From contig CAVXYC010000028.1 of the NCBI GenBank assembly GCA_963765765.1, positions 32,001-96,000 on the forward strand: a stretch of DNA of 64,000 nt. Direction: 5' to 3'. The position numbers were made by a program, and so were the translations under genes. Positions 44 through 1,421 of this stretch are shown in pieces; position 1 is the first letter of the stretch, and each line of letters opens with the position of its first letter. This DNA is from an uncultured Chloroflexia bacterium. Its GTDB lineage: Bacteria; Chloroflexota; UBA6077; JACCZL01. The notes under the pieces are model-generated. The model did no database searches, had not been told where the DNA came from, and saw nothing but the letters and a program-made list of their open reading frames with translations.

Positions 44-234
44 ACTGGCGGGGCCAGCGAGCCCATCTGGAACGCAGTCGGCCGGAGGTGAGAGTCCGAT
101 CCGCACTGGGTCCGGTGAGACCGTTTTGTAGCCTGGGCCCTCACCTTTGCCCGTCGTCCCGTGAGCCTGTACTGTTCCGGGGCGCTCAGCCCGTATCTGC
201 AAGTTTCCGCCTGGGGACGCCGCCGACTGCCAGT
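44..234 (+). ncRNA. Predicted IS110 bridge RNA
   Basis: 9-bp closing stem 74-82/222-230; target loop ATCCGCACT (99-107) ... TGTAG (127-131), whose reverse complement CTACA equals the core plus right flank at 1235-1239; donor loop ACTGTTCC (171-178) ... CCGTATCTGCAAG (191-203) resembling the IS621 layout as recalled. Confidence 0.72.
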
Positions 235-255
235 GTCGCCATGAGGAGGCGTGGT

Positions 256-1218
256 ATGAGCTCGGAGTCCGCCGCACCCCCAGTCGTCGTGGGGATTGAT
301 GTCGCCCAAGCGGAGCTGGTCGTCGCGCTCCGTCCGTCGGGCCAGTGGTGGTCGGTACCCAATACGGACGACGGGTGCGCCGCCCTGGTGGACACCCTGG
401 GACCGCTGGTGCCCGAGCGCATCGTGCTCGAAGCCGGTGGGCTCGAGCGGCCGCTGGCCACGGCACTCACCGCGGCCGGACTGCCCGTCGCGGTGGTGAT
501 CCACGCCCATCGCGATTTCGCGCGCGCAACGGTCGCCTGGCGAAGACCGACGCCCTCGATGCGCACGTGCTGGCGCACTTTGCCGAGGCGGTGGCCGCCG
601 CGGTGCGTCCGCCGCTCGACGCCGCCACGCAGGCGCTGCAGGCGCTGGTGGATCGACGTCGGCAATTGCGTGGTTCTGCTGCGTCAGCCCAACGGCAGCG
701 CCTGCGGCAGGCGGTTCCGGGTCGGTGTCCGCCCGGCATCACCCGTCACGTGGAATGGCTCGAAGCGGAGCTGGCCGCGATCGAGAAAGAGCTGGCCGAG
801 CGCGTGGCCAAGGGACCCGGTCTGGCACGGGAAGGCCCAGCGGGCCCCGGACGGTGCCGGCCATCGGCCCCACCATCGCGGCCACCCTCCTGGGCGCCCG
901 GAGCTGGGCCGACTGGGCCGCAAAGAGATCACCGCGCTGGTGGGCCTGGCGCCGCATAGCCGCGACAGTGGGACCATGCGTGGCGGGCGCCGCGCATCTG
1001 GGGCGGGCGGGCCATCTTCCGGCCACCGCTGTCTATGGGCGCCTGGTCGGCGTGCGGCACAACCCCGCGCTGCGCGCGTTCTATCAGCGGCTGCGCACTC
1101 CCGGGAAACCGACGAAGGTGGCGCTCACCGCCTGCATGGGCAAGCTGCTGCGCATCCTCAATCACCATTCATTGCCACCAATCAGGATTGGAATGCTGCC
1201 AAGTTATCCCCAGCTTGA
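256..1218 (+). CDS. IS110 family transposase/recombinase (DEDD RuvC-like + Tnp domain), multiple frameshifts
   Basis: [54 protein letters not shown] and [12 protein letters not shown] motifs spread over three frames. Confidence 0.9.
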
Positions 1219-1421
1219 CATTCCAAGACCGTTGCTACAGCACATTCCCAGTCCGCTAAGCTGGAAATTGAAGCCCTTAGGATCGGGCACCGGGATACCG
1301 ACCCGCCCGCACGATGACCGGAAAGCGGATACATCCGCCACCTTGCCGCGACGGCCCTCAATCGAGCAAGGCCCGTTATCCGTCTGGGCTTTTATCGTTT
1401 CGTAGACCCGAGAGAACCACC

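Follow-up and report, generated by a model that had tools for sequence, protein, structure and literature searches.

The window analysed here is a 64,000-nt stretch of contig C28 (G000:C28:32001-96000) from a 6.5-Mb, 92% complete genome assembly whose host is probably a soil member of the Chloroflexota. At its left edge lies, on the plus strand, the body of an insertion sequence (IS) of the IS110 group (1..1234), followed by a CT core dinucleotide (1235..1236) and by the right target flank, ACAGC (1237..1241). The element consists of a long non-coding leader and a recombinase gene (256..1218, plus strand), which is broken in this copy. It is very probably a decayed copy of a 1.26-kb, IS621-like member of the IS110 group of the IS110 family that carries a bridge RNA at its left end. 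Comparison of sequences supports reading the element as a bridge-RNA IS, which is a known type and not a new mechanism.

Four full-length copies were found in the genome, on C28 (the window copy), C30, C32 and C16, and the only other IS110-like matches in the same genome are two that are short and distant. The ends of the element were set by the point at which the flanks of the four aligned copies diverge. By this alignment, the true left end is at G000:C28:31983, 18 nt to the left of window position 1, and reads TGTATCTTGAACGCGAAG|CGTGAAAG..., while the right end reads ...GACCGTTG and finishes at 1234 (GTTG at 1231-1234), directly before the CT core. The left end of IS621 likewise begins with TGTAT. 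A preliminary description of the window had placed the start of the element at 44, which was wrong, as only window DNA was visible to it; its right boundary at the CT core was borne out by the alignment. CT stands on both sides of the element in all four copies, as it also does in homologous families, and in the window copy the second CT adjoins the left end, outside the window. The target duplication is this CT only, and the rejoined flanks give an intact repetitive extragenic palindrome (REP) with a single CT. Counting one CT, the window copy is 1254 bp long, against 1258 bp for the C30 copy. The left non-coding end is long (277 nt up to the ATG) and the right end is short (16 nt from the stop codon to the CT core), which is the reverse of the arrangement in IS1111. 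The C30 and C32 copies differ by no substitutions and one insertion or deletion (indel), a near-identity that suggests recent movement. The C16 copy differs from each of these two by 8 substitutions and 2 indels, and carries one frameshift.

The C30 and C32 copies encode an identical, intact 320-amino-acid protein (P0002), a DEDD/Ser recombinase with an N-terminal RuvC-like DEDD domain (PF01548, 9.4e-22) and a C-terminal Tnp domain (PF02371, 4.9e-18). Residues 12-319 align to the solved recombinases of ISCro4 (E 2.6e-41) and IS621 (E 7.5e-41). The ISCro4 recombinase (PDB 9t56) is the best solved-structure match by sequence, with residues 12-319 set against 11-326, a comparison made at the protein level only. 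Residues D15, E59, D101, D104 and S239-G240 align with the IS621 motifs IDT, IEATG, KTDTVDA and SGS, and the catalytic set of IS621 is described as D11/E60/D102/D105/S241 (PMC11208158). In the window copy, the gene differs from the intact C30/C32 gene by about 15-27 indel events, and its PF01548 domain is disrupted.

The leader has the predicted architecture of a bridge RNA. In the minimum free energy (MFE) fold of the intact C30 leader, two loops are enclosed by a closing stem, the strands of which are GCAGTCGGC (74..82) and GCCGACTGC (222..230); read directly, this stem is a perfect 9 bp in the window copy and contains one G.U pair in the other copies. The part 5' to it (1..73) is predicted from the same fold to form the 5' stem-loop region of the RNA. 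The target-binding loop has an outer stem, whose 5' strand (GGAGGTGAG-A-GTCC, 84..97) pairs with 135-146, and an inner hairpin, GGTC CGGTGA GACC (109..122), that can be read directly from the sequence. The donor-binding loop shows an extra outer stem in the MFE fold of the intact copy, with its 5' strand, GCCCGTCGTCCC (149..160), pairing with about 213-220. All of these features lie on the plus strand, as do the guides.

The guides were read by the published bridge-RNA rule, under which the donor guides work like the target guides and each pairing includes the core (PMC11208160). In the leader's two internal loops, the 5' sides match the left target and the left donor, the right target and the right donor are complementary to the 3' sides, and the core is present in each. 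The left target guide (LTG), ATCCGCACT (99..107), is identical, CT core included, to the left target's top strand. It agrees at 8/9 positions with the left flank TTCCGCACT of the C30, C32 and C16 copies, and at 7/9 with the left flank CTCCCCACT of the window copy. That a near match to this guide should abut the left end had been anticipated from the window, and DNA elsewhere in the genome bears this out, the three sites reading AATTCCGCA-CT|element|AC(A/C/G). The right target guide (RTG), TTTGTAG (125..131), is the reverse complement of CT-ACAAA and agrees with the right flanks at 7/7 positions in C30, 6/7 in C16, and 5/7 in both C32 and the window copy, where ACA fits and the following GC does not. 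The preliminary description had recognised TGTAG at 127-131 as the complement of CTACA at 1235-1239; the complementarity stands, but the guide is 7 nt long rather than 5.

The left donor guide (LDG) is damaged in the window copy, where it reads ACTGTTCC (ACTGTT-CC, 171..178) against ACTGTTGCC in the other three copies. The earlier proposal of a guide in the second loop was right as to its place, although it described the damaged form. The intact LDG, ACTGTTG, agrees with the left donor sequence at the right end of the element, ACCGTTG (1228..1234 in the four-copy alignment; ACCGTTGC spans 1228-1235), at 6/7 positions, with one U.G wobble. The right donor guide (RDG), TCTGCAAG (196..203), contains TGCAAG at 198-203, which faces the left end TGTATC; TGCAAG pairs with the top-strand CT-TGTA at 5/6 positions, with one G.T wobble. 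On direct reading, the preliminary description had correctly located the stem, the LTG, the hairpin, TGTAG, the second-loop segment, TGCAAG, the right end and CTACA.

The site that these guides describe is a repeat in this genome. The C30, C32 and C16 copies are inserted in ...GGCGGAAT(G/A)AATTCCGCA-CT|AC..., and the other strand of the left flank together with AC reads GTAG-TGCGGAAT-TC-ATTCCGC-CGTC (GTAG-T-GCGGAAT-TC-ATTCCGC-CGTC). The repeat is a 25-nt unit with a 7-bp stem and an unpaired GTAG at one end, and the repeat target sequence predicted for the C30 recombinase and leader is GGCGGAATGAATTCCGCACTACAAAC. The 25-mer has 24 copies at no more than 5 mismatches, including the three occupied ones, and an nhmmer profile of the repeat gave 27 copies at E <= 0.01, rising to 37 at E <= 10. 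Most copies form inverted pairs, spaced by about 15-60 nt, whose GTAG heads point outward. Seven such close pairs are present among the 24 copies of the mismatch scan (on C7, C10, C14, C19, C30 at 131 kb, C30 at 285 kb, and C32), to which the profile added further pairs on C30 (245 kb) and C15 (689 kb), as well as a weaker pair on C20. Of the 24 occurrences of the 10-mer TCCGCACTAC in the genome, about half fall within these palindromes. All three good IS copies are located in the GTAG head in one orientation, and the rejoined flanks of these copies resemble unoccupied copies of the repeat. The longest stop-free frame spanning each repeat copy was measured, but this is uninformative as to an extragenic position at 61% G+C, where long spurious frames are common.

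The preliminary description had taken the target for a GTAG-type REP end. This is correct for the C30, C32 and C16 copies, whose flanks lie in the palindrome head; the window copy itself occupies a non-REP site, CTCCCCA-CT|AC AGC, with the agreement at the LTG (7/9) and RTG (5/7) given above. The further suggestion of a REP-targeting recombinase from a different phylum holds as to REP targeting. The phylum is indicated by leads only, namely the nearest Atlas clusters of two chromosomal proteins, labelled 'commonest Chloroflexota', and the nearest relatives of the IS, which belong to metagenome-assembled genomes (MAGs) of Dehalococcoidia and other Chloroflexota.

In a genome of the same genus (G001), the two genes that flank the C30 insertion are 122 nt apart, with neither IS nor repeat between them, and short matches to the repeat are found elsewhere in that genome. 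Soil contigs of two sequencing runs join the C30 flanks, with 22 other letters in place of 1355 nt of IS and doublet (depths 3 and 2; shorter sides 57 and 33 nt). Since the IS and the doublet are both missing from the soil contigs and from G001 at this locus (L002 1481-2837, on G000:C30), the doublet is itself an insertion relative to these relatives, consistent with a mobile unit resembling a REPIN (REP doublet forming a hairpin). Three Y1-transposase loci (PF01797) are present in the genome, none with a copy of the repeat within 5 kb, so that linkage to a REP-associated tyrosine transposase (RAYT) was not found at any of the three. Symmetrical variants of the repeat, with GTAG heads on both sides (GTAGTGCGGA...TCCGCACTAC), were also observed at G000:C8:19274-19310 and G000:C15:307504-307547, and these present the guide-matching site in both orientations.

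In order to compare guides with flanks beyond this genome, species-representative genomes were scanned, which gave 226 relatives, of which the best 80 loci were retained. Among these 80, the closest relatives share 55-58% identity and belong to Dehalococcoidia, Thermomicrobiales and other Chloroflexota MAGs, and further relatives are found in Burkholderiales, Gemmatimonadota and other groups. Multi-copy families have shared ends, CT|TGTAT(C/G)TT... and ...TTGAC....A(A/C)AC..(T/C)TG|CT, with differing flanks. Forty-one distinct bridge-RNA cores, from this element and 40 loci, were aligned using MAFFT, and the guide columns of each row were read against its own flanks.

In this alignment the guides track the flanks. 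For the RTG, six of the 41 rows are without a full-length right flank (four have no right end and two are short), and the remaining 35 reduce to 25 distinct guide/flank pairs. Over the five non-core positions of these pairs, 116/125 match the right flank and 19 pairs are perfect; when the flanks were shuffled, the mean was 40.4 (standard deviation (sd) 5.7) and none of 10,000 shuffles reached 116. For the LTG, six rows lack an 11-nt left flank, and the 35 used match at 150/245 positions against a shuffled 99.9 (sd 5.6), again with 0/10000 shuffles reaching the observed value. The figure of 150/245 is an underestimate owing to a crude register rule, as shifted MAFFT columns lower the score of some loci (e.g., L073 and L080). 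On the donor side, 37 loci have a right end, and in 35 of them the LDG 7-mer is identical to it, across 8 LDG types, the exceptions being this element and L027, and (G/A)CAAG is conserved at the place of the RDG. The RTG also varies between elements of one Dehalococcoidia genome: elements with the RTG ACCTCAG have the flank CT-GAGGT at L022 and L024 and CT-GAGCC at L021, and those with the RTG GGCTCAG (L020 and L083) have the flank CT-GAGCC.

This agreement bears on the view that the leader is a mere structured 5' untranslated region (UTR) or attenuator of recombinase translation, with a chance similarity to the flanks. The leader does stand directly upstream of a ribosome-binding site (GAGGAGG, 243-249) and the ATG at 256, and small RNAs at IS110 ends were formerly held to regulate expression, as in ISPpu9 (described in PMC11208160). 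A UTR, however, has no reason to follow flanking host DNA, and with 0/10000 shuffles reaching the observed agreement for either target guide and the LDG equal to the right end in nearly every locus that has one, a UTR of this kind is an extremely improbable explanation of the leader.

The stems that frame the guides are also conserved as structures. RNAalifold predicted 13 consensus pairs, in the target-binding loop's outer stem and in the donor-binding loop's outer stem and hairpin, and 11 of these 13 have changed on both sides; all 6 predicted pairs of the target-loop outer stem show compensatory changes among the 41 homologues, and covariation likewise backs the inner stems of the donor loop (GCC(C)/GGGC and the hairpin). 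RNAalifold missed the inner hairpin of the target-binding loop because of inconsistent gaps in the MAFFT alignment, in which the row of this element is also one column off in the outer stem. It was re-tested by arm complementarity, for which the 5' arm need not be aligned. Of the 41 homologues, 35 have a 4-bp hairpin, with 10 different types of 3' arm, against a mean of 12.5 (sd 2.4) when arms were shuffled, and 0/5000 shuffles reached 35.

A different explanation of the target choice is that a protein recognising the REP hairpin mainly picks the site, the leader matches being secondary or a by-product of a carried piece of target. All three good copies adjoin the same 7-bp hairpin, the LTG overlaps the 3' arm of this hairpin, and a stem-loop in the ISPpu10 target is reported to add specificity beyond base pairing (preprint 10.64898/2026.03.19.712850). 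Nevertheless, the guides follow the flanks across families with unrelated targets, many of which are without an evident hairpin, the window copy went into a non-palindromic near-match, and the guide segments are located in internal loops between covarying stems. Hairpin recognition would be at most an extra layer on guide pairing rather than an alternative to it, and we consider it quite improbable as the main determinant.

Two observations were made on particular groups of relatives. In L007-L013, L020-L024 and L083, all from Dehalococcoidia MAGs, the flanks CCGTTCGCC-CT|GAGC(C/T)(C/T)GTCGAAGG agree well past the guide lengths, with similar motifs nearby. As flanks are shared past the guide lengths in the closest relatives, repeat targeting seems to be common in this clade. 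The other group, L015-L018, comprises four copies of a related IS110-group element at different chromosomal sites of one Dehalococcoidia MAG (OZ240224.1). All four hold an identical, nested 1204-bp IS110-family element in opposite orientation (L015 positions 212-1416), which splits the left-donor-guide DNA (GAACAGT|TG). It seems that the composite moved once its own donor loop had already been broken up; if true, its movement would call for a bridge RNA provided in trans or for another route.

A promoter is predicted at the joint of the element's ends. TTGACA at 1215..1220 (plus strand), which overlaps the stop codon TGA at 1216-1218, would be the -35 half, and a -10-like TATCTT occupies positions 3-8 of the element, just to the left of the window. 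When the ends are joined through one CT, the two are separated by 18 nt (TTGACA-18 nt-TATCTT). Of the 41 aligned rows, 34 have both ends, and a TTGAC./TAT..T layout spans the junction in 27 of these, with a spacer of 17 nt in 25 loci and 18 nt in 2; of the other seven, three lack TTGA and four are spaced otherwise. No promoter-like site was found on either strand of the integrated C30 copy. Reconstitution of a promoter in the circular form has been reported (PMC11208160), and the predicted promoter across the circle junction would fit this. Four of 21 public runs were compared with the C30 copy (three DNA contig sets and one RNA-library contig set). Parts of L002 (1503-1647, 1812-1968 and 2168-2614) are covered by RNA-library contigs with about 95-98% likeness, although transcription, strand and ends cannot be read from contigs.

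Several observations weigh against the assignment of a working bridge RNA to this element. The first position of the LTG never fits a flank, and the LDG and RDG each require one wobble pair. Most relatives have a junction spacer of 17 nt, whereas that of this element is 18 nt. The joint of right end and left end was not seen in the contigs of the four public runs, although contigs cannot show its absence, and the RNA-library contigs match parts of a close relative, with DNA carry-over possible; no transcription start was seen in these runs. A permissive scan of window positions 1-1500 with Rfam 15 returned three sub-threshold matches, none of them to a bridge-RNA family; the only near match was to sX15 (RF02234), on the opposite strand (window 72-227), with 24.5 bits where the gathering score is 55. 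Finally, the window copy is dead or badly assembled, and is non-functional as assembled.

When reverse-complemented, the consensus of the sX15 model reads CCG, 9 nt ending in CT, a GGTC..GACC hairpin, GT, and 7 nt ending in AG, which is the layout of the target-binding loop. sX15 and asX7 are described as RNAs that are complementary to each other and encoded on a plasmid, with 10 homologues known from Stenotrophomonas maltophilia (PMC3300014). On this resemblance of sequence, asX7 may be the bridge RNA of an IS110 element, with sX15 as its antisense; our literature search found no paper connecting sX15/asX7 to IS110 bridge RNAs.

Over 1.25 kb, the window copy carries 26-55 substitutions and 15-27 indel events relative to the C30 copy, the ranges being aligner-dependent. 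The changes include a 1-nt loss in the donor guide, several frame-shifting indels, and a 3-nt loss in the LEATG motif. Among the six-frame open reading frames (ORFs), one frame is open from 88 to 1218, yet IS110-like peptide pieces are scattered over all three forward frames. The copy lies in a stretch with few long ORFs that runs from the contig start to a tRNA-Leu(CAA) gene (3981-4065, minus strand). In that stretch (G000:C28:1-32000 and window 1-4065), fragments of a phage integrase (PF00589, 3285-3536) and of an AAA_25 domain (1875-2273) were each observed to be split over frames, and beyond the tRNA gene the ORFs of the chromosome are long. The ORF-poor stretch is an integrated island that has decayed or else a poorly polished portion of the assembly.

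The second option leads to the suggestion that the window copy is really intact and that its frameshifts stem from consensus errors made by the assembly in an island of low coverage or strain variability. The share of indels among the differences is far above that of usual natural divergence, the adjacent integrase and AAA_25 fragments are frame-split in the same manner, and the first 36 kb of the contig are ORF-poor next to a chromosome with long ORFs past the tRNA. Even so, the other three copies of the same assembly are clean, a 604-amino-acid ORF just upstream is unbroken, some of the changes are replacements of 3 nt or of multiple bases and not homopolymer slips, and the copy is located at another kind of site, outside the REPs. 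An intact copy is therefore possible but unlikely, and we treat the window copy as decayed.

Bridge RNAs of IS110 elements have been predicted in their thousands across the prokaryotes. They were predicted in 85.7% of the IS110-group elements of ISfinder (PMC11208160), and GTAG REPs have been described in Chloroflexi (PMC3733652). Bridge RNAs outside Proteobacteria (PMC11208160) and GTAG REPs in Chloroflexi are both already known, and close relatives of this element may perhaps already be present in the supplementary tables of PMC11208160. The closest described system is IS621 of E. coli (PMC11208160, PMC11208158). As described there, the two elements share the architecture of the recombinase, which aligns over its full length at the E value given above, a left-end bridge RNA with the target loop followed by the donor loop, the CT core, and a -35 in the right end with a -10 in the left end. 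Both are inserted in REPs: the wild-type target of IS621 is ATCAGGC-CT-AC (PMC11208160), compared with TTCCGCA-CT-AC here, and this target puts the core in the AG of the GTAG head, the same place as in our element. The two differ in the length of the RTG, which is 4 nt in the IS621 analysis and 7 nt here, although the RTG of some orthologues also exceeds that of IS621 (PMC11208160). Our element further has an extra closing stem and a longer 5' region, with a 277-nt leader against the 177-nt bridge RNA of IS621, an 18-nt junction spacer, a host that is probably a member of the Chloroflexota rather than E. coli, and a distinct REP family with few copies.

REP insertion by insertion sequences has long been known (PMC1525189). 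Site-specific insertion into REPs has been described for ISPpu9 and ISPpu10 of Pseudomonas putida, ISPa11, ISPsy8 and ISRm19/22 (PMC1525189, PMC12288879, 10.64898/2026.03.19.712850), and our element resembles them by this description, the hosts there being Proteobacteria. ISPpu9 and ISPpu10 are members of the IS110 family (PMC12288879, 10.64898/2026.03.19.712850), and in ISPpu10 a stem-loop stands beside the paired bases of the target (10.64898/2026.03.19.712850), as it does here. The repeat resembles the described GTAG-tagged REPs, including GTAG-23 of Thermomicrobium roseum (Chloroflexi), in being a short palindrome that has GTAG unpaired at one end and is found mainly in inverted dimers; the families described have 20-100 units or fewer (PMC3733652). 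It differs from the REPs of that report in that it also ends in CGTC, its dimers have the heads outward, and no Y1 locus was found within 5 kb of it.

By analogy with IS621, the element would be excised as a circle, in which the joined ends set TTGACA from the right end at its 18-nt distance from TATCTT of the left end and so drive expression of the bridge RNA and the recombinase. By sequence comparison, the donor-loop segments ACTGTTG and TGCAAG read the element's own right and left ends, and both loops include the CT core. A tetramer of the DEDD/Ser recombinase would then, again as in IS621, swap strands at CT between the circle and the target ...TCCGCA-CT-ACAAA. The target in this genome is the GTAG head of the small REP, present mostly as inverted doublets, and the window copy lies at a near-cognate, non-REP site in the ORF-poor stretch beside tRNA-Leu.

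REP mobilisation by RAYT transposases is thought to depend on the GTAG-head motif. One broader interpretation is that bridge-RNA insertion sequences of distant phyla, IS621 and this element among them, evolved guides for the same sub-site, the CT/AG in the GTAG head at the outer tip of the REPIN, of unrelated REP families. IS110 elements would then be specialised parasites, perhaps disablers, of REPIN populations and not mere users of safe landing pads. We regard this interpretation as speculative and rather improbable at present.

The known bridge-RNA mechanism is left unchanged by our finding. What the element offers is a clean natural example of the bridge-RNA rule, in that a site predicted from the RNA loops alone was confirmed by DNA outside the window. 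It adds a set of recombinase, guides and target with a 7-nt RTG from a soil lineage that probably belongs to the Chloroflexota, and in this lineage a small family of GTAG-headed repeats serves as the landing site.

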